DNA of 64,000 bases from positions 5,044 to 69,043 of the forward strand of contig CAZNIC010000006.1 in NCBI GenBank assembly GCA_964572985.1, read 5' to 3'. The notes under the pieces were generated by a model. That model made no database searches. It was not told the DNA's origin and saw nothing but the letters and a program-made list of their open reading frames with translations. The stretch's first letter is position 1, and the number at the start of each line of letters is the position of its first letter. A program made the position numbers and the translations under genes. Below, in pieces: positions 5,646-45,526 of the stretch. This stretch comes from an uncultured Oscillospiraceae bacterium. Lineage in GTDB: Bacteria > Bacillota > Clostridia > UMGS1883.

Positions 5646-7020
5646 AATAGTTTTCAAGTGTTTTTTCGGCTATTTCAACCGAATACAAAACGGCACTTTC
5701 GCTGGGACCGCCTATAAGGCTTCTGCCTTCAACACAAGCTGTCATGCTGATTGCATCGTAGATATCATTTTCGATATATTCGCTGCATTCCTTCATTTCT
5801 GCGAGTGTTAAATCGTCAAGAGCTTTGTTTGCTTTTTCAGCCATAAGAACCATTCTGCCTACGATTGCATGTGCTTCGCGGAAAGGAACACCCTTCTTTA
5901 CCAGATAGTCTGCAACATCGGTTGCGTTCGCAAAACCGCCCTTTGCACCGTTGAGCATTGTTTCTTTATTGATTTTCATAGTACTGATCATACCGTTAAA
6001 AACGGGAACGCAAAGTTTTACAGTATCGATTGCGTCAAAGAGCGATTCCTTATCCTCCTGCATATCTTTATTATAGGCGAGAGGAATACCTTTCATAACG
6101 GTTAAAAGAGCTGTCAAAGAGCCGTAAACTCTGCCTGTTTTGCCGCGGATAAGCTCTGCAACGTCGGGGTTTTTCTTTTGAGGCATAATAGAGGAGCCTG
6201 TGCTGTAACCGTCATCCATTGTTACAAAACGGAACTCGTTGCTGCTCCACAAAATAAGCTCTTCGGAAAAGCGCGAGAGGTGCATCATTACAAGAGAAAG
6301 ATTGCTTGTTAATTCAATGGCAAAATCGCGGTCTGAAACGCCGTCCAGAGAATTTGTTGTAACAGCTGCAAAACCAAGCTCACGGGCTACCATTTCGCGG
6401 TCAAGCGGGTGAGTAGTACCAGCCAATGCACCGCTTCCGAGCGGCATTACATTTGTTCTCTTATATGTATCATTAAGCCTGTCAAGGTCACGAAGGAGCA
6501 TGTTTACATATGCCATGACATGATGCGCAAATGTGATAGGCTGAGCTTTCTGAAGATGAGTATATCCGGGCATAATTGTCTTGGTGTGAGCTTTTGCAAT
6601 TGCAAGCAGTGAGTTGATAAGCTCAACTATCATGCCTTTTATTTCGCAAATTTCGTCTTTTACGTACATTCTTATATCAAGAGCAACCTGGTCATTACGG
6701 CTTCTGCCTGTATGAAGACGTTTGCCTGTATCACCAATACGCTCAATCAATATTTTTTCTACGTTCATGTGGATATCTTCAGCATCGATTTCAAATTCTA
6801 CTTTGCCGTTTTCAACATCAGAGAGAATTTCACCCAAGGTTTTAATAATAAGCATGCTGTCTTCTTCGGATATAATACCCTGTTTGCCAAGCATACGTGC
6901 ATGAGCAATACTGCCTGTGATATCCTGCTTATACAGCCTTTGGTCAAATCTGATTGAAGAGTTGAAGTCGTCAACCTTTTTGTCGGTTGCCTTTTCAAAT
7001 CTGCCACCCCAGAGTTTCAT
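5644..7020 (-). CDS. argH: Argininosuccinate lyase
   Basis: N-terminus 'MKLWGGRFE'; fumarase/aspartase-family signature '[12 protein letters not shown]'. Confidence 0.95.
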
Positions 7021-28858: not shown

Positions 28859-29653
28859 TTGCGTAAGTTTTTTTCAATCATCCGTTATTTTTTCATGAAA
28901 CTTAATACAGATAAAATAACACTTTACAGCGCATACTCATCATATTATACGGTAATTTCTTTTATTCCGTTTTTAATATTGATACTTATGCTCTCGGGTG
29001 AATTGTTTAATATTACAAAAGGGGATATTGTCATCTACGCAGGTGACAGTATCCCCAAAAATATTTATAATTTAATTTTTTATCTGGTTGAAGATATAAT
29101 GAAACAAAACTCTGTTTCTATGTTATCCTTTCCGATAGTTACATTGCTTTGGTCATCCTCAAGGGCGATTATGGCATTAACAAAAGGACTTGACTGTATA
29201 TTTGATGTAAAAACAAACCACGGATTGATAAAGCGCAATATTATCAGTCTGTATCGTACGTTGTTTTTAATAACAACAGTTGTTTTTTTTCTGACGATAT
29301 CAGTATTGGGGAATTTCGCCTCAATTGATAAGATTAAATATGTGCGTCCTGTTGTTTCTGTCATTGTTTTGACATTCTTCTTTGCGGGTGCCTATGCGTT
29401 TTTTCCAACCAAAAAACAAAACTATAAAAAGCAGCTTCCGGGCGCATTGTTTGCCGCTTTGTGTTGGATGTTTTTTTCCTTTTTCTTTTCGGTATACGTT
29501 GATAATTATTCCAACAAATCATATGTTTATGGTGGTTTATCTACGCTAATCGTACTAATGCTATGGATTTATTTTTGTACTGGTATAATTTTTATTGGTG
29601 CTGAAATTAACGCTATGCTATTTCCAAATAATGAAAACATTGACACCAAATAA
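28859..29653 (+). CDS. YihY/BrkB-family membrane protein
   Basis: Polytopic membrane protein with YihY-like 'YSAYSSYYTVISFIPFLIL' N-terminal region. TTG start. Confidence 0.7.
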   Translation: MRKFFSIIRYFFMKLNTDKITLYSAYSSYYTVISFIPFLILILMLSGELFNITKGDIVIYAGDSIPKNIYNLIFYLVEDIMKQNSVSMLSFPIVTLLWSSSRAIMALTKGLDCIFDVKTNHGLIKRNIISLYRTLFLITTVVFFLTISVLGNFASIDKIKYVRPVVSVIVLTFFFAGAYAFFPTKKQNYKKQLPGALFAALCWMFFSFFFSVYVDNYSNKSYVYGGLSTLIVLMLWIYFCTGIIFIGAEINAMLFPNNENIDTK

Positions 29654-29684
29654 TCTTCGTGATACTATATAATAAATTAAATAT

Positions 29685-29960
29685 AAAAAGATGTAGGTGG
29701 CGTATTGCTTTTGCAGATACGCATAATAGGGAATCGGGTGCAAATCCCGAACAGACCTGCTGCCGTGATAGGGGAGTTGACCTCACAATGCCACTGAAAC
29801 AATCGGGAAGGCGAGGAAAACGGTGATTCTTGAGTCGGAAGACCTGCCATATCTTTGTACAAATACTTCACAGGTAATTGAAGGGTACACTGTTTGACAA
29901 ATGTTTTTATACACATTTGTTTGTTTTGTGTGCTCACCGTGAAGGTGAGTTTTTTGTTTT
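29685..29960 (+). promoter_or_regulatory. Cobalamin (AdoCbl) riboswitch, copy 1, with an intrinsic-terminator expression platform
   Basis: Conserved core 'AATAGGGAATCGGGTGCAAATCCCGAACAGACC', 'GCCACTG', 'GGGAAGGCG' and B12-box 'AGTCGGAAGACCTGCC' (29833-29848). A terminator hairpin 'CTCACCGTGAAGGTGAGTTTTTTGTTTT' (29934-29960) lies just before RBS AAGGAGG. Confidence 0.9.
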
Positions 29961-29973
29961 CAAGGAGGTTTTT

Positions 29974-30408
29974 ATGAAAAGATTATTTGCTTTACTTATT
30001 ACCATTGTAATGTGCTTTTGCTTGTGTAGCTGTGGCGCCGCCAAAACAGTTGCCGTAAAAGTGGAAATTGATTGCTCCGAAATCATCAAAAATTATGATG
30101 ATCTTTCACCTGAATTAAAAAATGAAAAATATGTTCCTTCAAACGGCATTATCCTCAAGGAAACTACCATAGAGGTAAAAGAAGGAGCTTCTGCGGTTGA
30201 TATTTTGAAAGCTGTTTCTAAGGAATATAACATTCCGATTGATGTGTCGGCAGGTTATGCAAAAAGTATTAATCATATTTCTGAAAAATCCTGCGGCGAA
30301 ATGTCGGGTTGGGTTTACGAAATAAATAACGAAATGTTCATGGATGAATACAAGGCTAAAGACGGTGACCTTATCACTTGGAAATTTGTTTGCAGCTTTG
30401 ATTATTAA
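29974..30408 (+). CDS. DUF4430 (transcobalamin beta-domain-like) lipoprotein; putative cobalamin-binding protein
   Basis: Lipobox 'LCSCG'. DUF4430-type motifs 'SNGIIL', 'SAVDILK', 'GYAKSINHISEKSCGEMSGWVYEINNEMFMDEYKAKDGDLITWKF'. It sits directly downstream of cobalamin riboswitch 1. Confidence 0.75.
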   Translation: MKRLFALLITIVMCFCLCSCGAAKTVAVKVEIDCSEIIKNYDDLSPELKNEKYVPSNGIILKETTIEVKEGASAVDILKAVSKEYNIPIDVSAGYAKSINHISEKSCGEMSGWVYEINNEMFMDEYKAKDGDLITWKFVCSFDY

Positions 30409-30432
30409 TTTTTAATTTAGAATTTAATATAT

Positions 30433-30700
30433 AAAGAAGTAGGTGGCGTATTGCTTTTTGGCAGATACGCATAATAGGGAATCGGGTGAAAATCCCGAAC
30501 AGACCTGCTGCCGTGATAGGGGAGTTGACCTCAAAAATGCCACTGGGTAACCGGGAAGGCGAGGAATACGGTGATCCTTGAGTCGGAAGACCTGCCACTT
30601 CTTTGTACCAAATACTTCACAGGATTTTGAAGGGTACGTTAATTAGGGCATTTTATGAAATGCCTTCTTTGAGTATGCTTTTATTCCTGTAAAAATGCAA
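30433..30700 (+). promoter_or_regulatory. Cobalamin (AdoCbl) riboswitch, copy 2 (~90% identical to copy 1)
   Basis: The same conserved blocks as copy 1, including B12-box 'AGTCGGAAGACCTGCC' (30581-30596). The expression platform diverges, ending in a short 'GGGCATTTTATGAAATGCC' hairpin before RBS AAGGAGG. Confidence 0.9.
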
Positions 30701-30713
30701 GGAGGCGCAAGCT

Positions 30714-32873
30714 ATGAAAGCAAGCTCAAAGATTTTTTTGGTTTTAGCACTAATGTTGACACTTTTAACCGTTGTTACGGTTCAGGCAGGTGAATATATC
30801 ACCACAGCCGAAACCCCCGATGAAACAACCCTAAAATGGGCAACACAGATTGGTGAAGGCTGGCAAAAAAGTGCAGGTGCCCCGATTTTTGTTAATGACA
30901 GTATTGTCATTATTTCCGGGGACGAATTATTGAAGGTTAATCCCAAAAACGGGGAAATAATTCTTCGTGCACAAATGAGCGAAGCACAAAGCTATGGTTA
31001 TGTGGCACCAACATTTGCAGAGGGTAAAATCTTTATGAATTTATCAAACGGTACCGTTGAAGCGTTTGATGCAGATACCTTTGAGTCCGAATGGGTTTAT
31101 ACCGACACATTAAAAGGCAAAGGCATGACACAGGTTACATATTCCGAAAACACGGTTTTTACCGGCTTTTGGAACGGCGAAACAAAGGATGCTAACTTTG
31201 TTGCCCTTGACAGTACAACGGGTCAGTTAAAATGGTCAATGACAATTAACGGTGGTTTCTATTGGGCTGGTGCGTGCTTTACAGAGGATGCTGTTATTTT
31301 TGCAACCGATGACGGCAGCGATAAAATTGCTCATATTTATTCCTGTAATAAGCAAACAGGCGAAATTATAAGTCAAATCGATGTCAGTGACAAGGGCGAC
31401 ATCCGTTCTGCGGCAACATTTTACAACGGCAGAATATACGCTACTACAAAAGGTGGCTACATTATCTCTGCATCGTTAAATAATAACGTATTTTCTGATG
31501 TTAAGTATGGTGAAATCGGTGCGGCGTCCACATCCACTCCTGTTATTTACAAAGACAGGATTTATATCGGTGTAGGAGATAAGACAATTTCTGTGCTTGA
31601 CAGTAATACTCTTGATAAGCTGTTTGCGGTAAATGTTTCAGCATACCCACAGTGTACACCCCTTATTTCAACTTATTACGAAGATGCAGAAGGGTATCTT
31701 TACCTTTATACTACGTACAACAAAACACCCGGAGGCGTAACGCTTGTAAAAATTAAAATCGATGCTGAAAGCAGCGAAGACTGTATTGTAACAGAAATTT
31801 ACGATGCCGAAGGGTATTCTCAGTATTGTATTTCCGACATTATATGCGACGAAAACGGAACTTTGTACTACAAAAATGATTCGGGATATCTTTTTGCGCT
31901 CACAGGCAAAACAACTATTTATGCTTCCATGACAGAAGACGGATTTCTTTTGCCTCAGCGCGATATGTCTGTATCAAAAAACACAGCCGAAAAATATGGT
32001 TATACCGACACTGTGACCGACGGTACATCTGCGCTTGATGTTTTGGTTAAAATCCATGAAGATATGTTTGGCGAGGATTTTACACCGGATACTGCAAATG
32101 ATTACCTTCTGGTTTCAAGTGAGGGGTATTTGTCTCGTGTTGTGTGCATTGATACATATAACTTCGGTTTTGCGGTTAACGGATATGCGCCCCATGACGA
32201 TGTTTTAACCGAATGGGGCTATACGGGATATTCAATTAATCAAGCAAAAGTTTCAAATGGTGCCGTTGTGGAGTTTTTCATTTATCGTGACAGTTGGGCA
32301 ATGGATAATTATGTTCATTTTGAATTGAACGGCTCAAAAATATCGTCTTTAAAAGCTCGTACTGACGAAAACATTACACTTACTCTCAAAGGATATTCTA
32401 TTGGCTGGTACGGCTGCTCGGAAGAGTCACAGCTTGAAAGCATTATAACACCTATCCAAAATGCCGACATAACTTTGGTTGATAGCCTTACAGGCGAAAC
32501 AGAAAAAGTCACCACTACCGATGAAAATGGTAGTTTTAGCTTAAGCTTTGCATGCCCCGGTAAATACATTTTGTCTGCAACAGAAGGGGAGAGCGCAACC
32601 CCCATAATTGCACCTTGGTTTGAAGTTGATGTTAAGGGCATAGCAGTTAGCTTTAATGAGGATAAAACCACTGCAACAATCACATCAAATCTTGACGTGG
32701 CAACCTCTTGTTGGATTATAATTGCTGAATATAGCCAAGATATTGTAACCCGTGTTACAGTACAAGAATCAAATCTTCCCAAAGATTTCTCCACTAATAC
32801 TATCGATATATCAGCCTTTAGCGGTGATATCCGAATTTATGTATGGAATCAAGATTTAGAACCTGTGCGCTAA
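30714..32873 (+). CDS. Secreted PQQ-type beta-propeller protein with C-terminal beta-sandwich domains; BtuG-like candidate surface B12-binding protein
   Basis: Signal peptide (VQA/GEY). Multiple ~40-aa WD/PQQ-like blades over residues ~40-400 with 'G.I..W' repeats. C-terminal Ig/CarboxypepD_reg-like segment 'TTDENGSFSLSFACPGKY'. First gene after riboswitch 2. Confidence 0.6.
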   Translation: MKASSKIFLVLALMLTLLTVVTVQAGEYITTAETPDETTLKWATQIGEGWQKSAGAPIFVNDSIVIISGDELLKVNPKNGEIILRAQMSEAQSYGYVAPTFAEGKIFMNLSNGTVEAFDADTFESEWVYTDTLKGKGMTQVTYSENTVFTGFWNGETKDANFVALDSTTGQLKWSMTINGGFYWAGACFTEDAVIFATDDGSDKIAHIYSCNKQTGEIISQIDVSDKGDIRSAATFYNGRIYATTKGGYIISASLNNNVFSDVKYGEIGAASTSTPVIYKDRIYIGVGDKTISVLDSNTLDKLFAVNVSAYPQCTPLISTYYEDAEGYLYLYTTYNKTPGGVTLVKIKIDAESSEDCIVTEIYDAEGYSQYCISDIICDENGTLYYKNDSGYLFALTGKTTIYASMTEDGFLLPQRDMSVSKNTAEKYGYTDTVTDGTSALDVLVKIHEDMFGEDFTPDTANDYLLVSSEGYLSRVVCIDTYNFGFAVNGYAPHDDVLTEWGYTGYSINQAKVSNGAVVEFFIYRDSWAMDNYVHFELNGSKISSLKARTDENITLTLKGYSIGWYGCSEESQLESIITPIQNADITLVDSLTGETEKVTTTDENGSFSLSFACPGKYILSATEGESATPIIAPWFEVDVKGIAVSFNEDKTTATITSNLDVATSCWIIIAEYSQDIVTRVTVQESNLPKDFSTNTIDISAFSGDIRIYVWNQDLEPVR

Positions 32874-32886
32874 GGGAGGAAGAAGT

Positions 32887-33429
32887 ATGAATTTACTCAC
32901 AACTGTAATTTCTATAATTACACTTCTTTCTATGCACTTGCCTTCAATCGATGTTAGTTATATCAATGATGCAGATGAATACATAGAAGAAAGTGTATAT
33001 TGTTCTGTTGATGCAAGCTCGGTTTCAATAGGAGATGTTATACCAACAGAAGAAATCTCTTTTAATGGCGAAAACTGTGCCGAAATTTTTGTTAATTTGC
33101 TTGAAAGTAATGGTTTTGAGGCAATATATTCCGGTAGTACCAAGGAAGATTTTTATCTTTCTGCCGTAAGCGGTATCGATACTTCGAATGCCTTTGTTTC
33201 GGAGGAATTTGCGGACTTTTTAACTGCACACGGCATTGATTATGAAAATGCTGTATGGGAAGAAAACGTCCTTAGTGAATTTGATTTTACCGAATCATCA
33301 GGCTGGATTTATACCGTAAACGGCGAAATTCCCGATGTGGGAATGAATAGCTACATACCCAATCCCGGAGACGAAATTAAACTTATTTTTACTCTCTGTT
33401 ACGGAGAAGATATTTATTTATTGAACTGA
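32887..33429 (+). CDS. DUF4430 (transcobalamin beta-domain-like) protein with N-terminal signal/anchor
   Basis: 'GWIYTVNGEIPDVGMNSYIPNPGDEIKLIFT', a DUF4430 C-terminal motif. RBS GGAGGAAG. Confidence 0.7.
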   Translation: MNLLTTVISIITLLSMHLPSIDVSYINDADEYIEESVYCSVDASSVSIGDVIPTEEISFNGENCAEIFVNLLESNGFEAIYSGSTKEDFYLSAVSGIDTSNAFVSEEFADFLTAHGIDYENAVWEENVLSEFDFTESSGWIYTVNGEIPDVGMNSYIPNPGDEIKLIFTLCYGEDIYLLN

Positions 33430-33430
33430 T

Positions 33431-34540
33431 ATGAAAAGATTTGTATTGTTTCTACTTATTATTTTATTAATATCAAACACTGTGCATTGTTCTGACATAG
33501 CAAACGAGGCATACAGCACCCCGGGCACCTCTAACGGTGACTGGAGTGCTATTGCTCTTATGTTGTCGGATGAAGACTTTGACAAAGAACGTTATATCAC
33601 AGCCCTCGGTCAATATGTTACAGAAAAGTACGAATATTCCGACAAATTAAGTCGAACAAAGTCAACTGAATGGCATAGGATTGCTATAGCAGTAAATCTT
33701 GCAGGAGAGGATGCAACTGATTTTTGTGGCATTAATCTTATAAACGACGGTGTTTTTTACCGAGAAAATCTTGGCAGGCAAGGGCTTAACGGCTATGTGT
33801 GGGCGCTTATAGCCCTTTGTTCGAGCGATTTTGATGAGCCATACGATGCAGTCAACACAAAAAACAGCATTTTAAACGAAATATTGCTTCGTCAAAACAG
33901 TGACGGTGGGTTTTCTGTTTCGGGCAACACCTCCAATTGCGATATGACAGCCATGACTTTATATGCACTTTCGTTTTTTCAAGACAGGGAAGAGATAAGT
34001 GCTCGGATTGACAATGCCCTTAATTATTTATCAAATATACAAAACGTCGACGGAAGTTTTTCGGAGGGCGGAGTGCCGAATGCCGAAAGTACAGCTCAGG
34101 TAATTATTGCACTTTCAGCACTTGGTAAAAACAAAACCGATGATAAAATGCTAAATGACGCTTACAATGGGTTAATGCTTTTTAAAACAGCTGACGGATT
34201 TTCCCATGTTAGCCCGGGGGAAACAAATACCATTGCAACATATCAAGGAACGTGTGCTGTTGTTGCGGCAGAAAAGCCGAGAGCAATATATAAAAAGATT
34301 AATGATTTCAAAAACGCAACACATTTTGTTGAATTACCAACAGCCTCGGATGAAGAAGAAATTACCCAAACAGAAACTGTATTAACCACCACAGTCAGCG
34401 ATTTATCAACCAAAACCGAAACTGAAACAGCAGCTCTTCAACAGGTATCAGATGATAACAATGGCAGTTTATTTATAATAATATTTTCATTTATCGCTGT
34501 TTGTGGTATAATTACCTTATGTATATGGAGAAAAAAATGA
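33431..34540 (+). CDS. Secreted, C-terminally membrane-anchored alpha/alpha-toroid protein (prenyltransferase / squalene-hopene-cyclase-like repeats)
   Basis: Signal peptide. At least 4 repeats of the 'G(G/Y)(F/W)....(A/T)...(L/I)(A/S)L' type: 'LNGYVWALIALC', 'SDGGFSVSG..CDMTAMTLYALSFF', 'VDGSFSEGG..STAQVIIALSALG', 'ADGFSHVS'. C-terminal TM 'LFIIIFSFIAVCGIITLCIW' followed by RKK. Confidence 0.65.
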   Translation: MKRFVLFLLIILLISNTVHCSDIANEAYSTPGTSNGDWSAIALMLSDEDFDKERYITALGQYVTEKYEYSDKLSRTKSTEWHRIAIAVNLAGEDATDFCGINLINDGVFYRENLGRQGLNGYVWALIALCSSDFDEPYDAVNTKNSILNEILLRQNSDGGFSVSGNTSNCDMTAMTLYALSFFQDREEISARIDNALNYLSNIQNVDGSFSEGGVPNAESTAQVIIALSALGKNKTDDKMLNDAYNGLMLFKTADGFSHVSPGETNTIATYQGTCAVVAAEKPRAIYKKINDFKNATHFVELPTASDEEEITQTETVLTTTVSDLSTKTETETAALQQVSDDNNGSLFIIIFSFIAVCGIITLCIWRKK

Positions 34541-35058
34541 ATTTTAAGAAGAAATCTATCTTTTTGGCAGTTTGTGCTATTTTAATTATTGCGGTTTTTT
34601 TGATATCTAATATACAAAGTACGGAAAATTACGAAAAAAATATATCTGAAAATGGTGATTTTACCGTAACAATATCTATTGATTGTAAAACCATTTTAAA
34701 TGAATATGAAAAGCTTGATAATTCTCTCAAAAACACACAATATGTTCCCGAAAACGGTATTATCCTGAATAAAACAACGGTTTGGGCAAATAAAGGCGAT
34801 ACGGTACTGGATATTTTAAAAAAAGCCACAAAAGAGAATAATATTCAGCTTGAATACTCCCAGTCTCCCAATGACTCATATGTTGAGGGCATAAACCATA
34901 TTTATGAATTTTCTTGCGGTGAGCTTTCAGGGTGGATGTATAAAGTAAACGGTAATTTTGCAAATACCGGCTGTAATTCATATTTTGTTTCGGAAAATGA
35001 CCATATTCAATGGATTTATACTTGTAATCTCGGCGAAGATATAGGAGAAAAATTCTGA
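34537..35058 (+). CDS. DUF4430 (transcobalamin beta-domain-like) protein, N-terminally membrane-anchored; paralog of the 29974 gene
   Basis: ATGA overlap with the upstream stop. TM 'IFLAVCAILIIAVFLI'. 'ENGIILNKTTVWANKGDTVLDILKK' and 'CGELSGWMYKVNG' parallel the first DUF4430 protein. Confidence 0.7.
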   Translation: MNFKKKSIFLAVCAILIIAVFLISNIQSTENYEKNISENGDFTVTISIDCKTILNEYEKLDNSLKNTQYVPENGIILNKTTVWANKGDTVLDILKKATKENNIQLEYSQSPNDSYVEGINHIYEFSCGELSGWMYKVNGNFANTGCNSYFVSENDHIQWIYTCNLGEDIGEKF

Positions 35059-35912
35059 TGCGTTTTTATGATTTTCATCCTCTTACTTTAATTGTATATT
35101 TTGCATCGGTCATTGCATTTACAATGATAACTATGAACCCATTTTTGTTATTATTGTCTTTTTTTGGTGCATTTTTATCGGTAAAAATTATCACAAAGAA
35201 AAGCAGTTTTACTTCATATATTATTATTTTTGCTGCAATATGTCTCACAAATCCGATATTTTCGCACAACGGCGAAACAGTTTTGTTTTATATATTTGAC
35301 CAACGCGTGACGCTTGAAGCGTTAATTTACGGTGTTGGCGCCGGTCTGCTTATTTTATCGGTATTATATTGGTTTAATCTGTTTAGCTATGTTTTCACTG
35401 AGGACAAGCTTGTTTGGCTGGTAGGCAAAATTTCGCCCAAGCTTTGCGTTGTATTTTGTATGGCTTTAAGGTTTATTCCGCTTTTTAAAGAAAACGCAGC
35501 AAATATCTATAACGCACAGCTTTCAATGGGTATTTTTGAAACCAATACATTTAAAGGAAAACTCAAGCTTATAACAAATGTTTTTTCTGCCTTGATTTCA
35601 ATTTCTGTTGAAAACGCTATCGAAACTGCAGACACCATGTCGTCACGTGGTTTTGGCGGCAAAAAGCGTTCTTCATATTCACTAGTTTGCATGTCAAAAC
35701 GAGATGTTTTATTTATTTTTGTTAGTTTGTTACTGGATTTATTGGTGATAATCAATCTTTTAAGTGGGGAAGGCGTGTTTTACTATTACCCCGCACTTTA
35801 TTTTGAAGGTTTTTCGATTTTGTATGTAGTTTTTGCAGTGCTTTGTCATTTGCCTGTTTTAAATGAGCTTACGGAGGAAATAAAATGGAAATACTTGATA
35901 TCAAAAATCTGA
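35058..35912 (+). CDS. ecfT: ECF transporter transmembrane (T) component, EcfT/CbiQ family
   Basis: Polytopic, with EcfT-like coupling-helix region 'ENAIETADTMSSRGFGGKKR' (A-R-G/S motif). TGATG overlap. Confidence 0.75.
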   Translation: MRFYDFHPLTLIVYFASVIAFTMITMNPFLLLLSFFGAFLSVKIITKKSSFTSYIIIFAAICLTNPIFSHNGETVLFYIFDQRVTLEALIYGVGAGLLILSVLYWFNLFSYVFTEDKLVWLVGKISPKLCVVFCMALRFIPLFKENAANIYNAQLSMGIFETNTFKGKLKLITNVFSALISISVENAIETADTMSSRGFGGKKRSSYSLVCMSKRDVLFIFVSLLLDLLVIINLLSGEGVFYYYPALYFEGFSILYVVFAVLCHLPVLNELTEEIKWKYLISKI

Positions 35913-37429
35913 CTTTCAGATATCCTCAATCAAATACAAATGCTCTTTTAGATGTTTCGTTTTCTGTAAACGAAGGTGATTTTGTTCTTTTGTGTGGCGG
36001 CTCAGGCAGTGGTAAAACAACACTTTTGAGACTTTTGAAAGAAGAAATTGCGCCTTTTGGCGAAAAGAGCGGCACTATAAACATAAAAAAAGGTGCAAAT
36101 ATCGGAATTGTTACTCAAGATACCGAAAACCAGATTATATCAGATACCGTATGGCATAACTTGGCGTTTGCGCTTGAAAACATGAACAGACCCGACTGTG
36201 AAATACGTCAAAAAATATCGGAAATTACGGAATATTTTGATATAACACATTTGTTTTATAAAAACACTTTTGAGCTTTCAGGCGGCGAAAAACAGCTTGT
36301 AAATTTAGCGTCTGTTATGGTGACAGACCCCGATATTCTGCTTTTGGACGAACCTACAAGCCAGCTTGACCCCATTGCGGCAAGCCGATTTATGGATATA
36401 GTAAAAAAGCTTAATACCGAAATGAATCTTACGATTATAATTGTTGAGCATCGGGCAGAGGAGCTTTGGAATCACGCAGATAAGGTTGTTTTAATGGAAC
36501 AAGGAAAAAGTCAAATTATGCAAATATGCGATATCAAATCAGGAAAACTGCATGATTATACTGTTGAAAAACCTTATGCAATACAGCTTTTTGAACGCCT
36601 TAATATAAAATCTGATTATCCTTTGACTGTAGGCGGTTGCCGCAGGTTTTTATCGGATAATTTTAAATCCGAAGTCAATGCAATTGAAGAAACAGAATAC
36701 GAAAAAAACACGGCATTAGAATTAAAGGATGTTTATTTCAGATATACAAAAAATTCTGCAGATGTATTAAAAAAGCTCAATTTTAGTGCAGATTTTGGCA
36801 AAATACTTACTCTTTTAGGCGGAAACGGCAGTGGTAAAACAACGCTTTTATCACTAATATCGGGCATAAGAAAGCCCTACAGCGGAAAAATAAAAACATT
36901 CAATCATAAGATTGCAGTTTTGCCTCAAAACGTAAAAACAGTTTTTACAAAAGATGTTTTAAAAGAAGATTTTGCCCTAATTACGGATGATTTTTATGAT
37001 GTCTGCCAAAAGCTCGATATAGAACATCTTTTAGACAGAAACCCCTTTGATTTAAGTGGAGGAGAGGCTCAACGTGCAGCTTTGGCAAAGGTCCTGCTTG
37101 TAAAGCCCGACATTCTTTGTCTGGACGAGCCTACAAAGGGAATAGATGCAAAAGGGAAGAGGCTTATACAAAAAATCCTTAAAATGTTGGCATCAAGTGG
37201 TGTTTGTGTAATAATTGTAAGCCACGATGCTGATTTTTCGGCAGAGATTTCAGATAAATGTGCATTTTTATTTAACGGACAAATTGTATCGGAAGGAAGT
37301 CCGCGAATGGTTTTTTCAAAAAACAAATTTTATACAACATATGCGTCACGCATTTCAAGACATATGTATAAAAATGCAGTTACAATTGATGACGTAGTTA
37401 ATTTGTGCAAAAGGAATGGTCACTATTAA
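35885..37429 (+). CDS. ecfA: ECF transporter ATPase, fused EcfA-EcfA' (two ABC domains)
   Basis: Two Walker A motifs ('GGSGSGKTT', 'GGNGSGKTT'), two signatures ('LSGGEKQ', 'LSGGEAQ'), two Walker B motifs ('LLLDEPTS', 'LCLDEPTKG'). Confidence 0.85.
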   Translation: MEILDIKNLTFRYPQSNTNALLDVSFSVNEGDFVLLCGGSGSGKTTLLRLLKEEIAPFGEKSGTINIKKGANIGIVTQDTENQIISDTVWHNLAFALENMNRPDCEIRQKISEITEYFDITHLFYKNTFELSGGEKQLVNLASVMVTDPDILLLDEPTSQLDPIAASRFMDIVKKLNTEMNLTIIIVEHRAEELWNHADKVVLMEQGKSQIMQICDIKSGKLHDYTVEKPYAIQLFERLNIKSDYPLTVGGCRRFLSDNFKSEVNAIEETEYEKNTALELKDVYFRYTKNSADVLKKLNFSADFGKILTLLGGNGSGKTTLLSLISGIRKPYSGKIKTFNHKIAVLPQNVKTVFTKDVLKEDFALITDDFYDVCQKLDIEHLLDRNPFDLSGGEAQRAALAKVLLVKPDILCLDEPTKGIDAKGKRLIQKILKMLASSGVCVIIVSHDADFSAEISDKCAFLFNGQIVSEGSPRMVFSKNKFYTTYASRISRHMYKNAVTIDDVVNLCKRNGHY

Positions 37430-38108
37430 ACATAGTATTTTTAGTATTTTATCAATAATATTTTTATTAACGTTGGCAATTTTGAGCAATGTTTTTCTTG
37501 GAAATGAAAAGTATATGCTGGTTGCAACCATTGGTGCTTTAATAAGTATAATTCCGTTTTTTACAGCTTTTGAAAATAAGAGACACACAACGCGGGAAGC
37601 CGTTATAATCGCTGTAATGGTAGCACTTTGTGTTTCAGGACGTCTAATTTTTACTATAGTACCGCATTTTAAACCTGTTACAGCACTTGTAATCATAACA
37701 GGCATATATTTTGGTTCCGATGCCGGCTTTATAACAGGCTCTCTTACAGCATTGGTGTCCAATATGCAGCACGGACAGGGTCCATGGACGGTGTTTCAAA
37801 TGTCGGTTTGGGGATTAATCGGTTTTTTTGCGGGATTTTTAAACAAAAAACGACTTTTGCAAAACAGGTTTTCGCTGATGGTTTTTTCGGGTATTTGTGG
37901 GGTTATATATTCTTTAATAATGGATATATATACAACAATAAGCATAGATAGTGTATTTTCATTCGAAAGATATTTGTTTTACGTGGCAACGTCTGTACCT
38001 ATAATGCTTGAATACATAATTTCAAACATTGTTTTTATCTGTGTTTTACAAAAACCTATTGGAAACAAACTTTTGAGAATAAAAACAAAATATGGTTTAT
38101 TTAACTAA
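37416..38108 (+). CDS. ECF transporter substrate-specific (S) component, putative cobalamin-specific (CbrT-like)
   Basis: A 230-aa, ~6-TM protein overlapping the ecfA end and last in the riboswitch-controlled operon. Specificity is inferred from context only. Confidence 0.55.
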   Translation: MVTIKHSIFSILSIIFLLTLAILSNVFLGNEKYMLVATIGALISIIPFFTAFENKRHTTREAVIIAVMVALCVSGRLIFTIVPHFKPVTALVIITGIYFGSDAGFITGSLTALVSNMQHGQGPWTVFQMSVWGLIGFFAGFLNKKRLLQNRFSLMVFSGICGVIYSLIMDIYTTISIDSVFSFERYLFYVATSVPIMLEYIISNIVFICVLQKPIGNKLLRIKTKYGLFN

Positions 38109-44038: not shown

Positions 44039-45526
44039 TCAAAGCGGCATGTTGTCGTGCTTACGTGAAGGAGCACCTACGCGCTTGCTTCTGAGCATTT
44101 CAAATGCTGCAATAACTCTGGGACGAGTTTCGCCGGGGATAATAATATCGTCAACATAACCCATAGCTGCTGCATTATAGGGTGATGCAACAGTTTCTTT
44201 ATATTCTTCAACAAGTGTCTCTCTGCTCTCGCCCGCTTTAAGACGTTCAGAGAACATAACACCAACACCTGCTTCGGGTGCAATTGCTGCAATACATGCT
44301 GTGGGGAAAGCAAGCACGATATCAGCACCGGTCTGCTTCGAGTTCATAGCTGCATAAGCACCACCATATGCTTTCTTAACTATAACATTTACCTTGGGTA
44401 CAGTAGCTTCAGTAAACGCGTACAAAAGTCTTGCGCTCTTTCTTGCCAGACCCCAGTTTTCCTCATCTGCGCTTACCTTAAAGCCTTCAACATCTGTAAA
44501 AGTAAGTATTGCAATGTTAAAAGCATCACAAAAACGCACAAATCTTGCCATCTTTTCAATAGCTTGTCCGCTGAGAGTACCGCCTTCTTCATTGCCCTGA
44601 TTTGCAACAACGCCAACAGTTACACCGTTAAGTCTTATAAAGCCTGTAACTGCGCCTCGTGCATAATTAATATGGCTTTCCATGAAAGCACCATCATCGG
44701 CAACTGCCGCGATAAGGCTTCTTACATCATATTCGCCATCAACACCCATGAAGCTGTCGCTCATACGGTTAAGGTCATCCATACAATCAAACTCAGGAGC
44801 ATCACAAAGATTGTTAGAAGGAAGATAACTCAAAAGAAGCTTTACTGTTTCAAGCGCCAATGTATCATCTTTTGCAATAAAATGAGCATTGCCGGAAACT
44901 GTTGCACATGCTTTTGCGTCAGCACTGTAAGCCTTGTTTGTTGTTGCAGTAACAACAGAGGGCGAATTAACAAAAAGCTCTGCTTTTTCGCTCATAACAA
45001 CAAAATCACTCATTTCGGCAACAATGGCACTTGACGCCGCACATGTGCCGAGTACTGCACAAATTGTGGGTACAACACCCGATACGCGAGATACAGCCGC
45101 AAGAATTTCGCCTACTGCCGCCTGTGCAATAACGCCTTCTTCCAATCTTGCGCCGTTGCTGTCAAGCATAGCAATAACGGGAGCACCCATTTTGGCAGCC
45201 ATTTCGTAAACCTTACAAATCTTTTTTGCGTGCATTTCACCCACACACCCACCAATTACAGTAGGATCCTGTGCATAAGCAAAAGTAAGCCTACCGTCAA
45301 CAGTGCCGTAACCTGTTACAACGCCGTCAGCAGCAGTATCTTTTCCTCGAGCTGAAACAAAAGCATCAAGTTCAATAAAACTGCCCTCATCAAAGAGATT
45401 ATTCATTCTCTCGCCTGCAAGCATTTTTCCCGAACTCTTTACTTTGCTCTGCATATCTGCGCCACCGCCAAGCGATACAGTCTGCCTTGCCGCGTTGCGC
45501 ATAGCAAGCTTTTCATCCATGCTCAT
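44039..45526 (-). CDS. Acyl-CoA carboxyltransferase 12S-type subunit (methylmalonyl-CoA decarboxylase alpha / propionyl-CoA carboxylase beta family)
   Basis: Two crotonase-like CT domains: 'DGVVTGYGTVDGR', 'GGCVGEMHAKKICKV' and 'GGAYAAM'. Confidence 0.88.
   Translation of the reverse strand: MSMDEKLAMRNAARQTVSLGGGADMQSKVKSSGKMLAGERMNNLFDEGSFIELDAFVSARGKDTAADGVVTGYGTVDGRLTFAYAQDPTVIGGCVGEMHAKKICKVYEMAAKMGAPVIAMLDSNGARLEEGVIAQAAVGEILAAVSRVSGVVPTICAVLGTCAASSAIVAEMSDFVVMSEKAELFVNSPSVVTATTNKAYSADAKACATVSGNAHFIAKDDTLALETVKLLLSYLPSNNLCDAPEFDCMDDLNRMSDSFMGVDGEYDVRSLIAAVADDGAFMESHINYARGAVTGFIRLNGVTVGVVANQGNEEGGTLSGQAIEKMARFVRFCDAFNIAILTFTDVEGFKVSADEENWGLARKSARLLYAFTEATVPKVNVIVKKAYGGAYAAMNSKQTGADIVLAFPTACIAAIAPEAGVGVMFSERLKAGESRETLVEEYKETVASPYNAAAMGYVDDIIIPGETRPRVIAAFEMLRSKRVGAPSRKHDNMPL

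Follow-up and report, generated by a model that had tools for sequence, protein, structure and literature searches.

The 64-kb window analyzed here (the whole stretch of DNA, 64,000 nt; all positions are counted from its first letter) carries two full-length cobalamin riboswitches, RS1 and RS2, separated by the gene for a DUF4430 lipoprotein (G1) and followed by seven genes (G2-G8) that are best explained as an ECF-CbrT-type B12 capture and import operon. The leader of RS1 contains an intrinsic terminator, and that of RS2 a helix that covers the Shine-Dalgarno sequence (SD) and start codon of G2. Control of one transcript by RS1 and then by RS2 is the best model, although it is not proven. We consider it probable that the locus as a whole is explained by one promoter, a transcriptional RS1 and a translational RS2, an ancestral dual layout, and gene conversion limited to the aptamer. 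Promoter, leader elements and G1-G8 lie on the forward strand.

Two Cobalamin Riboswitches Flank a DUF4430 Lipoprotein Gene

The original prediction had named two cobalamin riboswitches here and proposed an RF00174 scan as a check. A cmscan search of the window gave exactly two matches to RF00174, both on the forward strand, full-length and untruncated (model positions 1-189). RS1 (29677-29865), whose structure is also borne out by covariation, scores 108.4 bits (E = 3e-26) and RS2 (30423-30613) scores 113 bits (E = 2e-27), where the gathering score is 31.5. The two copies have the same B12 box (AGTCGGAAGACCTGCC); in the RNA, the box (AGUCGGAAGACCUGCC) and GCCACUG occur in both copies and are invariant over 10 related leaders. 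Across these 10 leaders, 87.8% of the cells are paired and 18 pairs change on both sides, a number that none of 500 shuffles reached; slid controls collapse to 32-50% paired. Between RS1 and RS2 there are compensatory changes from A-U to U-A in P1 and from G-C to A-U in the CUGG/CCGG hairpin. Most of the differences between the copies are unique to RS1, and RS1-specific changes keep the pairing, in support of the aptamer structure. At the sequence level both copies are thus confirmed as bona fide cobalamin riboswitches, which would bind a corrinoid and respond to it. Minus-strand ORFs that overlap the riboswitches (29677-29937 and 30374-30598) were judged spurious. A regular-expression screen for the B12 box was too noisy, with false matches inside the window itself, and was replaced by the Rfam scans. 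The exact 22-nt riboswitch pattern found no match in a search of metagenome contigs.

The copies share a block of ~214 nt that is ~91-92% identical (29675-29888 in RS1 and 30421-30637 in RS2, 746-749 nt from start to start). Aligned to each other, the blocks match at 195 positions, mismatch at 18 and have gaps at 5 (91.5% identity ungapped, 91.9% for the trimmed block). This agrees well with the ~90% identity that was first described, and the expression platforms differ, as was also described; we read them as a terminator versus an SD/AUG sequestor. The copies are as nearly identical as was claimed, but the repeated block exceeds the quoted core of ~165 nt because it includes the P13 hairpin that follows the aptamer. 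Similarity breaks off after GGGTAC (29888/30637) and resumes only at the SD (CAAGGAGG). RS2 does follow closely on G1, at slightly shorter distances than the 25 nt given originally; the Rfam match begins 14 nt, and the P1 stem 22 nt, downstream of the G1 stop (30408).

Expression Platforms

In both copies the loop of P13 is complementary to the L5 loop of the aptamer. The RS1 L5 loop in the covariance-model structure is ACCUG (29755-29759), and the P13 hairpin CUUCA / CAGGUAAU / UGAAG (29866-29883) presents CAGGU in L13, for a predicted 5-bp kissing loop. The L5 loop within the RS2 aptamer is likewise ACCUG (30503-30507), of which CCUG is complementary to CAGG in L13 of the hairpin CUUCA / CAGGAUUU / UGAAG (30615-30632), for 4 bp. 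The CCUG:CAGG complementarity is found in 10/10 leaders, the pairs being invariant and hence without covariation; RS1 adds the fifth, A-U pair. Within P13, the pair at alignment columns 194/207 covaries (UA in six sequences, CG in four). In the published model, this kissing loop couples the aptamer to the platform (PMC9600662). RS1 and RS2 would then be AdoCbl-type OFF switches that both read the state of the aptamer via L5-L13.

RS1 has the pairings of a transcriptional switch. In the ligand-free fold, an antiterminator (29866-29944, -28.3 kcal/mol) pairs CUUCAC.AGG...GGGUACAC with GUGUGCUC-ACC-GUGAAG (29928-29944) and encloses a hairpin, H1 (29897-29920). The P13 5′ strand and L13 both take part in it. 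The competing structure is the terminator T2 (29932-29960), GCUCACC-GUGAA-GGUGAGU and then UUUUUUGUUUU; its 7-bp stem (29932-29950, -11.2 kcal/mol) has four G-C pairs, and TTTTTTGTTTT in the DNA lies directly 3′ of it. The strong intrinsic terminator that had been noted for copy 1 is therefore present, U tract included. Two distant relatives (L018 and L021) have an antiterminator that is built alike from different sequences, and the covarying partners in the three leaders are CUUCAC:GUGAAG, CAGGG:CCCUG and CUACAGGAU:AUCCUGUAG. When free folds were compared with folds in which P13 was locked, locking P13 turned T2 on in all three. Without ligand, the 5′ strand of the terminator and its loop would be taken up in pairing with the P13 5′ strand and L13, the antiterminator would form and transcription would go on. 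With ligand, the kissing loop would hold P13, T2 would form and transcription would end before G1.

The platform of RS2 had been read as a weaker hairpin, where we found a conserved SD/AUG sequestor instead. The ligand-free fold contains an anti-sequestor (30619-30690, -29.1 kcal/mol) in which GAGUAUGCUUUU..UUCCUGU is paired to L13, the P13 3′ strand and GGGUAC; it encloses the RS2 H1 hairpin (30645-30666) and is conserved in L001, L002, L008, L009, and L014. In the ligand-bound fold, UGAGUAUGCUUUUAUUCCUG forms a sequestor helix (30670-30728, -21.2 kcal/mol) with the SD of G2 (AAGGAGG, 30699-30705), its AUG (30714-30716) and codons 2-5. Complementary strands of RS2 are UUCCUG/AAGGAG and GAGUAUGC/GCAAGCUC. 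This sequestor is orthologous to that of the single riboswitch in related genomes, and locking P13 turns SD/AUG sequestration on in the same five relatives (free vs. locked folds). The free fold of the window's own RS2 is already the sequestor fold (both -36.4 kcal/mol), so part of the case for the switch logic comes from the orthologs. Without ligand, the anti-SD strand would be kept occupied by L13 and the P13 3′ strand; once ligand binds, it would be freed to sequester the SD and AUG along with the opening codons of G2.

Promoter and Transcript

A promoter, P (29640-29668), lies just ahead of RS1 and overlaps the last codons of a BrkB/YihY gene. It consists of a -35 TTGACA (29640-29645), a 17-nt spacer and a TG-extended -10, TGaTACTAT (29660-29668), with 10/12 matches plus the TG. 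The motif TTGACA-17-TGnTAnnAT is found at the same place in L001, L008, L009, L013, L014, L018, L020, L021, L022, and L104. Upstream of RS2 there is no sigma-70 match of at least 9/12, the best being 7-8/12, and the equivalent region of L001, L002, L008, L009, L013, and L014 has no promoter match at a conserved position. We also found no terminator-like site from the G1 stop to RS2, as had been noted previously; the sole other match in the region is weak and lies inside G1 (30294-30306). Because the sole consensus promoter stands ahead of RS1 and no terminator precedes RS2, the best model is one of sequential control over a single transcript. The locus states of the relatives fit this. L018, L021, and L104, in which only the upstream riboswitch is intact, have the same promoter, riboswitch and T2 ahead of G1 and the ECF genes, with intergenic gaps of 26-66 nt. 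In relatives without RS1, P is followed by a leader of ~25 nt and then by G1, the riboswitch and the operon, and the terminator is absent.

The two sequential B12 checkpoints of the original prediction are accordingly the model that the lone consensus promoter, and the relatives that run their ECF genes from P, support best, if indirectly. The companion claim that copy 1 controls only the first gene is probably incorrect, since T2 would gate everything downstream if the operon is read from P. Transcription would start from the one strong promoter, where the BrkB/YihY gene ends, and run through RS1, G1, RS2 and then the seven-gene operon. G1 would face one B12 checkpoint, a transcriptional one, and G2-G8 would face two in series, transcriptional and then translational, for which deeper and steeper repression is expected.

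The main alternative is that of two independent transcription units, in which a separate promoter, inside the 3′ end of G1 or immediately behind it, serves RS2, each switch controls its own genes and there is little read-through. A precedent exists in the btu operon 1 of Bacteroides thetaiotaomicron, which has one promoter per riboswitch (PMC13616437). Upstream of RS2 the DNA is rich in AT and contains -10-like hexamers, e.g., TAGAAT (30418-30423) without a -35, and T2 is strong enough that transcripts from P may rarely reach RS2 when B12 is present. We nevertheless consider separate units unlikely, given the lack of a sigma-70 match of 9/12 or better before RS2 or of one at a conserved position in the six relatives, and the mere 22 nt between the G1 stop and P1 of RS2. 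Relatives that lack RS2 would, moreover, express the ECF genes from P alone, and in those that lack RS1, P and its short leader lead into G1, the riboswitch and the operon without any terminator in between.

Genes of the Operon

G1 (29974-30408, SD AAGGAGG at 29962-29968) encodes a 144-aa DUF4430 lipoprotein (PF14478, E = 6e-10) with a lipobox, LCSC, that is conserved in the alignment of homologs. It is predicted to be an extracellular B12-binding protein. No significant PDB match to G1 came from either sequence or profile searches. The ORFs and domain matches of the operon (30714-38108) begin with a PQQ-like beta-propeller protein (G2, 30714-32873), a DUF4430 protein (G3, 32887-33429), a prenyltransferase-like alpha/alpha-toroid membrane protein (G4, 33431-34540) and another DUF4430 protein (G5, 34537-35058). 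These are followed by the ECF T component CbiQ (G6, 35058-35912, PF02361), a fused double ECF ATPase (G7, 35885-37429, PF00005 twice, TIGR04520/04521) and a CbrT-like S component (G8, 37416-38108), which matches PDB 6FNP_A (ECF-CbrT) with an E-value of 4.9e-8. By these sequence matches a CbrT-like S component is joined to ECF T and A components, as in an ECF-CbrT importer, and a B12 capture and import operon of this type is the best explanation of G2-G8. Among 29 distinct, distant DUF4430 loci with ±2.5 kb of flanking sequence, one has a single riboswitch and none has two. This shows that DUF4430 genes do not in general have the dual layout and is otherwise uninformative.

Evolution of the Riboswitch Pair

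A recent duplication, which was offered originally to account for the similarity of the copies, does not fit the data; its alternative, concerted evolution, is the part that the data favor. RS1 and RS2 differ by 8-9%, compared with 1.5-3.5% among the RS2 orthologs of three sister species whose housekeeping DNA differs by ~12%. With the lone riboswitch of L008, RS2 shares 98.5% identity, and with that of L009, 97.0%. T2 is homologous to the riboswitch-terminator-G1 leaders of the distant relatives L018 and L021, and visibly to that of L104. The RS1 terminator and ribosome-binding site (RBS) aligned to L018 with a score of 37 (shuffles 16.6 ± 2.5, 0/1000 as high), and the alignment to L021 was matched by 6/1000 shuffles. 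L104 has an intact upstream riboswitch and, after G1, a truncated RS2 (the P1 5′ strand plus P2); remnants of an RS2 leader are also found in L018, L020, and L022. Since T2 and the RBS are homologous to those of distant leaders and L104 retains a remnant, the two-riboswitch layout looks ancestral in this group of gut Clostridia, with one or the other riboswitch lost repeatedly. An ancestral dual state needs several independent losses of RS1 (in L001, L014, L008/L009/L013, L022, and L020).

The aptamer of RS1 groups differently from its platform. Its nearest neighbor is a clade-I RS2 in 498/500 bootstraps, and the aptamers of L018, L021, and L104 cluster apart. Because the RS1 aptamer is nested among clade-I copy-2 aptamers while its platform is related to distant leaders, we infer gene conversion limited to the aptamer. 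The near identity of the aptamers points to non-reciprocal exchange within the aptamer and P13 block, the platforms having had separate histories; this inference draws on a single intact dual locus together with remnants. No relevant paper on riboswitch gene conversion, or on concerted evolution of riboswitches, turned up in the literature collection that was searched. A U-A pair in P1 shared by RS1, L018, and L021 was downgraded as evidence of orthology, as the RS2 of L103 has the same 5′ base (homoplasy). The RS2 remnant of L104 gave 19 against L104's own RS1 and 20-22.5 against other RS2s, and its short P2 is the sole hint of homogenization within that genome. The P1 U-A pair and the short P2 are single characters each.

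The competing scenario is that the RS2 aptamer was recently copied into a short G1 leader, which would have put a constitutive gene under B12 control, and that the terminator arose or was recruited later. All of the closest relatives (G1 82-85% identical) have just a short leader before G1, the repeat block begins right behind the promoter, and the RS1 aptamer is indeed nearest to RS2. This scenario is improbable in our view, because the RS1 terminator and RBS are homologous to those of another clade (significantly to L018 and L021, visibly to L104), L104 proves the dual state elsewhere, the copies have diverged more than RS2 has among three species, and most of the differences are unique to RS1. 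An ancestral layout with later conversion of the aptamer is the reading that we retain.

Within G1 there is a recombination junction (30267-30282), upstream of which the window is ~76% and downstream ~97% identical to L008. A chimeric assembly, joining a riboswitch-G1 genome to a G1-riboswitch-operon genome so that no cell has both riboswitches, could produce such a sharp shift (~30270) in a conserved part of G1 of a metagenome assembly, and L013 is a mosaic of a similar kind at the conserved 5′ half of its riboswitch; it is very improbable here, as the L008-like patch is bounded, its right-hand end lying between 34.4 and 44 kb, and would require two joins, L008 and L009 are equidistant to the left of it (araA protein 99% and 98%, DNA ~88%), a conserved carboxyltransferase at 44 kb is only 95% identical to that of L008 where the patch regime would predict 98% or more, the GC content is uniform, the RS1 aptamer is of the clade-I RS2 type so that the lineage must have carried such an RS2, and L104 independently shows that the dual state is biologically real.

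Comparison with Known Systems

The aptamers of RS1 and RS2 have no unusual features for RF00174. Like the AdoCbl class that has an L5-L13 kissing loop along with a P6 extension (Bacillus subtilis btuF, Thermoanaerobacter tengcongensis, Escherichia coli btuB), they have the B12 box, GCCACUG, covarying P1-P6 and a P13 hairpin with a loop that complements L5. The arrangement of the locus resembles that of the B. thetaiotaomicron btu operon 1, which reads riboswitch, btuK1-btuK2-btuH1, riboswitch, btuB1-btuGH-btuJ1 (PMC13616437). In both cases a riboswitch precedes one or more accessory capture-lipoprotein genes, which are followed at once by a second riboswitch and the core uptake genes; the second switch is translational (predicted in the window) and no terminator is known between the switches. 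They differ in phylum and in the uptake system, which is TonB/BtuB in Bacteroides and of the Gram-positive ECF-CbrT type in the window. In addition, the first switch of the window is a clear intrinsic-terminator switch, a promoter is recognizable only for RS1, whereas each Bacteroides riboswitch has one, and the aptamers of the window are ~92% identical.

Tandem riboswitches with a shared ligand, termed pseudo-cooperative, are known for TPP in Bacillus anthracis and as 26 AdoCbl doublets (Sherlock et al., 2022, PMC9481103). Like these, RS1 and RS2 are two complete switches for one ligand, with their own platforms and met in series; a steeper dose response is predicted for the downstream genes, and the upstream member is transcriptional, as expected (PMC12452182). 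The pair had been called tandem, which does not hold in the sense of the riboswitch survey (PMC9481103) because G1, a 435-nt ORF with its own SD, lies between the copies. They do not share a single 5′ UTR, surveys would skip the pair, and the first gene is under one switch only.

ECF-CbrT is the vitamin B12 transporter of Lactobacillus delbrueckii (PDB 6FNP; PMC5997447). The S component of the window matches CbrT, and the ECF T and ATPase components adjoin it. The module of the window differs in being dedicated and operon-encoded with its two ATPases fused, and in being preceded by four extra extracytoplasmic proteins (the beta-propeller, two DUF4430 proteins and the alpha/alpha toroid) in addition to G1.

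Significance

The riboswitches themselves are ordinary, and a B12-uptake operon with two riboswitches has already been described in Bacteroides; the locus is a good example and not a new type of system. As a Gram-positive counterpart it is clean, and its mechanisms can be read, with a transcriptional switch ahead of a translational one. The beta-propeller, the three DUF4430 proteins and the alpha/alpha toroid are candidates for a relay that captures B12 and passes it to an ECF-CbrT transporter in Firmicutes. Roughly a dozen syntenic relatives have both riboswitches, only the upstream one, only the downstream one or none, and form a series in which the added value of dual control could be measured. 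The series makes it testable whether serial switches for the same ligand with a gene between them make repression sharper or deeper, or give the capture protein and the transporter separate thresholds, and whether paralogous aptamers are kept alike through gene conversion. More tentatively, and with somewhat less than even confidence, the locus family may be a natural record of modular riboswitch evolution. The sensing module (aptamer and P13) would be exchanged by conversion, so that the same corrinoid is sensed identically, the terminator and sequestor outputs would stay distinct and old, and lineages would have dropped one, the other or both.

Two Cobalamin Riboswitches With Different Expression Platforms

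An Rfam scan of the whole window returned two matches to the cobalamin riboswitch family RF00174 and no match to any other family. Both aptamers lie on the + strand and are full-length and untruncated. The upstream riboswitch, RS1 (29677-29865), scores 108.4 bits and the downstream one, RS2 (30423-30613), scores 113 bits, against a gathering score of 31.5, bearing out the original prediction of two ~90% identical cobalamin riboswitches. Alignment and repeat-finding delimit a repeated block of ~214 nt (29675-29888 and 30421-30637) with 195 matches, 18 mismatches, and 5 gap positions. The block extends past the aptamer and takes in the post-aptamer hairpin P13, CUUCA-CAGGNNNN-UGAAG, whose loop (L13) is complementary to aptamer loop L5 (ACCUG). 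The likeness stops sharply 3′ of GGGUAC and resumes only at the Shine-Dalgarno (SD) sequence CAAGGAGG. Across 10 leaders, the Rfam structure plus P13 has good support, with changes on both sides of 18 pairs, which was matched by 0 of 500 shuffles.

L13 of RS1 (29871-29875) reads CAGGU, giving five potential kissing-loop pairs with L5 ACCUG. In RS2 (30620-30624) and eight of the nine aligned related leaders it is CAGGA or CAGGG, with four pairs; a U-G is possible as the fifth pair in L018, the locus of a distant relative. The fifth pair could shift the sensitivity of RS1. Minus-strand ORFs overlap both riboswitches (29677-29937, 86 aa; 30374-30598, 74 aa) and are probably chance ORFs in structured RNA.

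The leaders 3′ of the B12 box were folded both freely and with P13 held in place and L13 barred from pairing, to stand in for the ligand-stabilized kissing loop. In the free fold of RS1, GUGUGCUC-ACC-GUGAAG (29928-29944) is paired by the P13 5′ strand, L13, and GGGUACAC. Because this pairing takes up the terminator's 5′ strand and loop, it is an antiterminator (-28.3 kcal/mol). Locking P13 lets the terminator form, GCUCACC/GGUGAGU followed by UUUUUUGUUUU (29932-29960, -11.2 kcal/mol). Two distant relatives show the same switch behavior with other sequences, CAGGG:CCCUG (L018) and CUACAGGAU:AUCCUGUAG (L021), which is covariation at the level of the predicted switch. In RS2, the conserved strand UGAGUAUGCUUUUAUUCCUG has two alternative pairings. 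In an anti-sequestor (30619-30690, -29.1 kcal/mol) its partners are L13, the P13 3′ strand, and GGGUAC; in a sequestor (30670-30728, -21.2 kcal/mol) they are the SD (30699-30705) and, in the next gene, the AUG (30714-30716) and codons 2-5. The two are near-isoenergetic in RS2 orthologs. Between them lies a hairpin (30645-30666) followed by only a weak U tract. These alternative folds predict an OFF switch in both cases, acting on transcription termination in RS1 and on translation initiation in RS2. The platforms therefore differ as originally proposed, and more sharply: a terminator switch against an SD/AUG sequestor.

Genes of the Locus

The genes discussed at the locus are all on the + strand. 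A BrkB/YihY-family gene (28859-29653) precedes RS1, and G1, a 144 aa DUF4430 lipoprotein gene (29974-30408), lies between the riboswitches. Downstream of RS2 are G2 (30714-32873), a PQQ-like beta-propeller with Ig-like domains; G3 and G5, both DUF4430; G4, a membrane-anchored prenyltransferase-like alpha/alpha toroid; and three ECF genes, G6 (T component, CbiQ), G7 (fused double ATPase), and G8 (S component). We interpret the locus as a B12 capture and import operon, because G8 matches PDB 6FNP chain A (E = 4.9e-8), which is ECF-CbrT, a characterized vitamin B12 ECF transporter (PMC5997447), and because DUF4430 is the C-terminal domain of transcobalamin-type B12 binders (PMC4350170). Such an operon is the expected type of target for a cobalamin riboswitch. 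Among 29 more distant, distinct DUF4430 loci (±2.5 kb), none has two riboswitches and one has a single cobalamin riboswitch; the dual layout is therefore not general to DUF4430 genes.

Five extracytoplasmic proteins, namely three DUF4430 proteins, one beta-propeller, and one alpha/alpha toroid, are encoded 5′ of the ECF-CbrT-like transporter (G1, 29974-30408; G2-G5, 30714-35058). The toroid and DUF4430, as separate genes, resemble the two domains of transcobalamin/intrinsic factor, and the G2 propeller is reminiscent of BtuG. By analogy, G1-G5 may form a Gram-positive B12 capture relay. A PF01039 methylmalonyl-CoA carboxyltransferase-type protein encoded at 44039-45526 (-) would be consistent with the organism having a propionate/succinate pathway that depends on B12.

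One Transcript or Two

Just 5′ of the RS1 block lies a promoter close to consensus (TTGACA, 17 nt, TGaTACTAT; 29640-29668). Only 22 nt separate the G1 stop from the start of RS2 P1, and a terminator scan, like the original reading, found no terminator-like site between that stop and RS2. One weak terminator-like site lies inside the G1 coding sequence (30294-30306, a 5-bp stem then GGTTGGGTTT) and is at chance level in the scan. In relatives lacking RS1, a leader of ~25 nt connects the orthologous promoter to G1, and the riboswitch and the operon come next. Other relatives have neither RS2 nor G2-G5; there G1 and the ECF genes are driven by this promoter with its riboswitch and terminator, and the genes lie 26-66 nt apart. 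RS2 may have a weak AT-rich promoter of its own, but the best sigma-70-like matches 5′ of it reach 7-8/12 and their position is not conserved in orthologous loci. We infer, as the best reading, that the operon begins with G1 and contains RS2 as an internal, intercistronic riboswitch, which would place one B12 checkpoint before G1 and two in series before G2-G8. The original mechanistic reading was largely right, with two sequential checkpoints as the most favored interpretation.

Related Loci and Origin of the Pair

The neighborhood from araA, an SLH protein, and BrkB to a Xer recombinase is syntenic in ~12 genomes or metagenome contigs of uncultured Clostridia, and an Rfam scan of the window and these loci distinguished six layouts. 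Only the window has promoter-RS1-terminator-G1-RS2-G2..G8. Promoter-G1-RS2-G2.. is found in L001, L008-L012, L013, L014-L016, and L103. L002 has a single riboswitch right after BrkB and before G2, without G1 (5679-6003), and would fit the product expected of direct-repeat recombination between RS1 and RS2 deleting G1. L018/L019, L021, and L104 have promoter-RS1-terminator-G1-ECF T/A/S. In L022 the promoter and G1 are followed by an RS2 leader without its aptamer and then by the ECF genes, and in L020 by an RS2 leader remnant and then by unrelated genes. By sequence, the RS2 platform is a clear ortholog of the one belonging to the single riboswitch of L002 and of the loci with G1 and RS2 only. 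In L022 (4460-4650) and L020 (3107-3380) the whole aptamer is cleanly deleted, leaving the leader's 5′ end and platform (hairpin, GAGUAUGC strand, SD). L022 also lacks G2-G5; L020 keeps G1 and has lost the whole transporter, with a uracil/xanthine permease and UPRTase in its place.

The RS1 terminator and RBS align with the L018 leader (local score 37 versus 16.6 ± 2.5; 0/1000 dinucleotide shuffles) and the L021 leader (6/1000), and local alignment with shuffles gave no alignment to RS2-type platforms. L104 has the same RS1-type CTCATCC...GGGTGGG terminator. Protein identities of SLH, BrkB, and G1 place these three loci in a different clade. L104, its upstream riboswitch intact, also carries AAAGAAGCAGATTGCGTATTTTTAGATACGTATAGTGG directly after G1, the P1 5′ strand and P2 of a truncated RS2 fused to the CbiQ start, and in L018 ~15 nt from the 5′ end of the RS2 leader survive after G1, so the dual layout once existed in a distant lineage. 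Most simply, this layout would be ancestral, with one or the other switch lost repeatedly.

The RS1 aptamer block has 72-80% identity to the upstream-position aptamers of L018, L021, and L104 and does not group with them. It is nested among the RS2s of clade I, the group of the window and its sister-species loci L008 and L009 (RS2 91.9%, L008 91.4%, L009 90.9%), and one of these three is its nearest neighbor in 498/500 bootstraps. RS1 is thus a mosaic that joins a sensing module of RS2 type to an output module of RS1 type, and gene conversion confined to the repeated block would be the simplest reconciliation. The short P2 of the L104 remnant matches L104's own RS1 and points the same way, as a single character. 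A literature search turned up no account of gene conversion between paralogous riboswitches, which is weak negative evidence. RS1 and RS2 diverge by 8-9%, the RS2 orthologs of the window, L008, and L009 by 1.5-3.5%, and their araA DNA by ~12%; either the exchange was not very recent or RS1 is evolving faster. Most RS1-RS2 differences are unique to RS1. They either lie in loops or are offset by compensatory changes (P1 A-U to U-A with G-C to G-U; CUGG/CCGG hairpin G-C to A-U), and RS1 is therefore being maintained by selection rather than decaying. Of the two origins first suggested, recent duplication is contradicted by the terminator/RBS homology to L018 and L021, the L104 remnant, and the 8-9% divergence, and concerted evolution is the better, given the clade-I nesting of the RS1 aptamer.

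Recombination at the Locus

From SLH to about two-thirds of the way through G1, the window and L008 share 61-91% of their nucleotides (mostly 65-85%). Identity leaps to 97-99% at ~30270 and is then mostly 88-99% to beyond 34.3 kb. L009 is equidistant from both throughout. At the junction (~30267-30282), 69 mismatches in ~290 nt give way to 12 in 450 nt. A chimeric assembly join inside G1 could produce this jump and make the dual layout an artefact, but we regard that as very improbable. To the left, AraA is 99% (L008) and 98% (L009) identical as protein at ~88% DNA identity, the species baseline, and at 44 kb the carboxyltransferase, a conserved protein, is only 95% identical to that of L008, at or below baseline and unlike the patch. 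The L008-like patch, whose right end falls between 34.4 and 44 kb, is so bounded on both sides, as expected of an imported recombination tract. GC content is also uniform, the RS1 aptamer type implies a clade-I RS2 in its own lineage, and L104 is independent evidence that the dual state is real. The pattern, a patch with 90-99% nucleotide identity to L008 against a background of ~75-88%, indicates that two sister species recently exchanged RS2 and at least G2-G4 by homologous recombination, with the left crossover inside G1. L013 (2946-3820) is a second mosaic, either by recombination or as an assembly chimera: its G1 is 91% identical to L009, its riboswitch and G2 N terminus are 94% and 74% identical to the distant L002 lineage, and the breakpoint lies at or near the riboswitch's conserved 5′ half. 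Exchange at the locus may therefore be recurrent.

Comparison With Known Systems

Same-ligand tandem riboswitches that share a 5′ UTR are a familiar arrangement; 26 AdoCbl doublets are listed in a 2022 survey, which terms such arrangements pseudo-cooperative (PMC9481103). The nearest precedent for the architecture is btu operon 1 of Bacteroides thetaiotaomicron, in which one B12 riboswitch precedes btuK1-btuK2-btuH1 and a second, translational one lies right after btuH1, before btuB1-btuGH-btuJ1 (PMC13616437). A separate promoter serves each riboswitch, no terminator between the two is known, and the paper describes as unexplored whether they differ in the B12 level at which they saturate (PMC13616437). 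The window holds a Firmicute, ECF-type counterpart of this design, differing in its clear terminator switch in first position. Thus, the pair is real and its two-riboswitch architecture already has precedent; the added interest lies in the apparent mosaic origin of RS1 and in the loci themselves, which form a natural series carrying both switches, one of them, or none.
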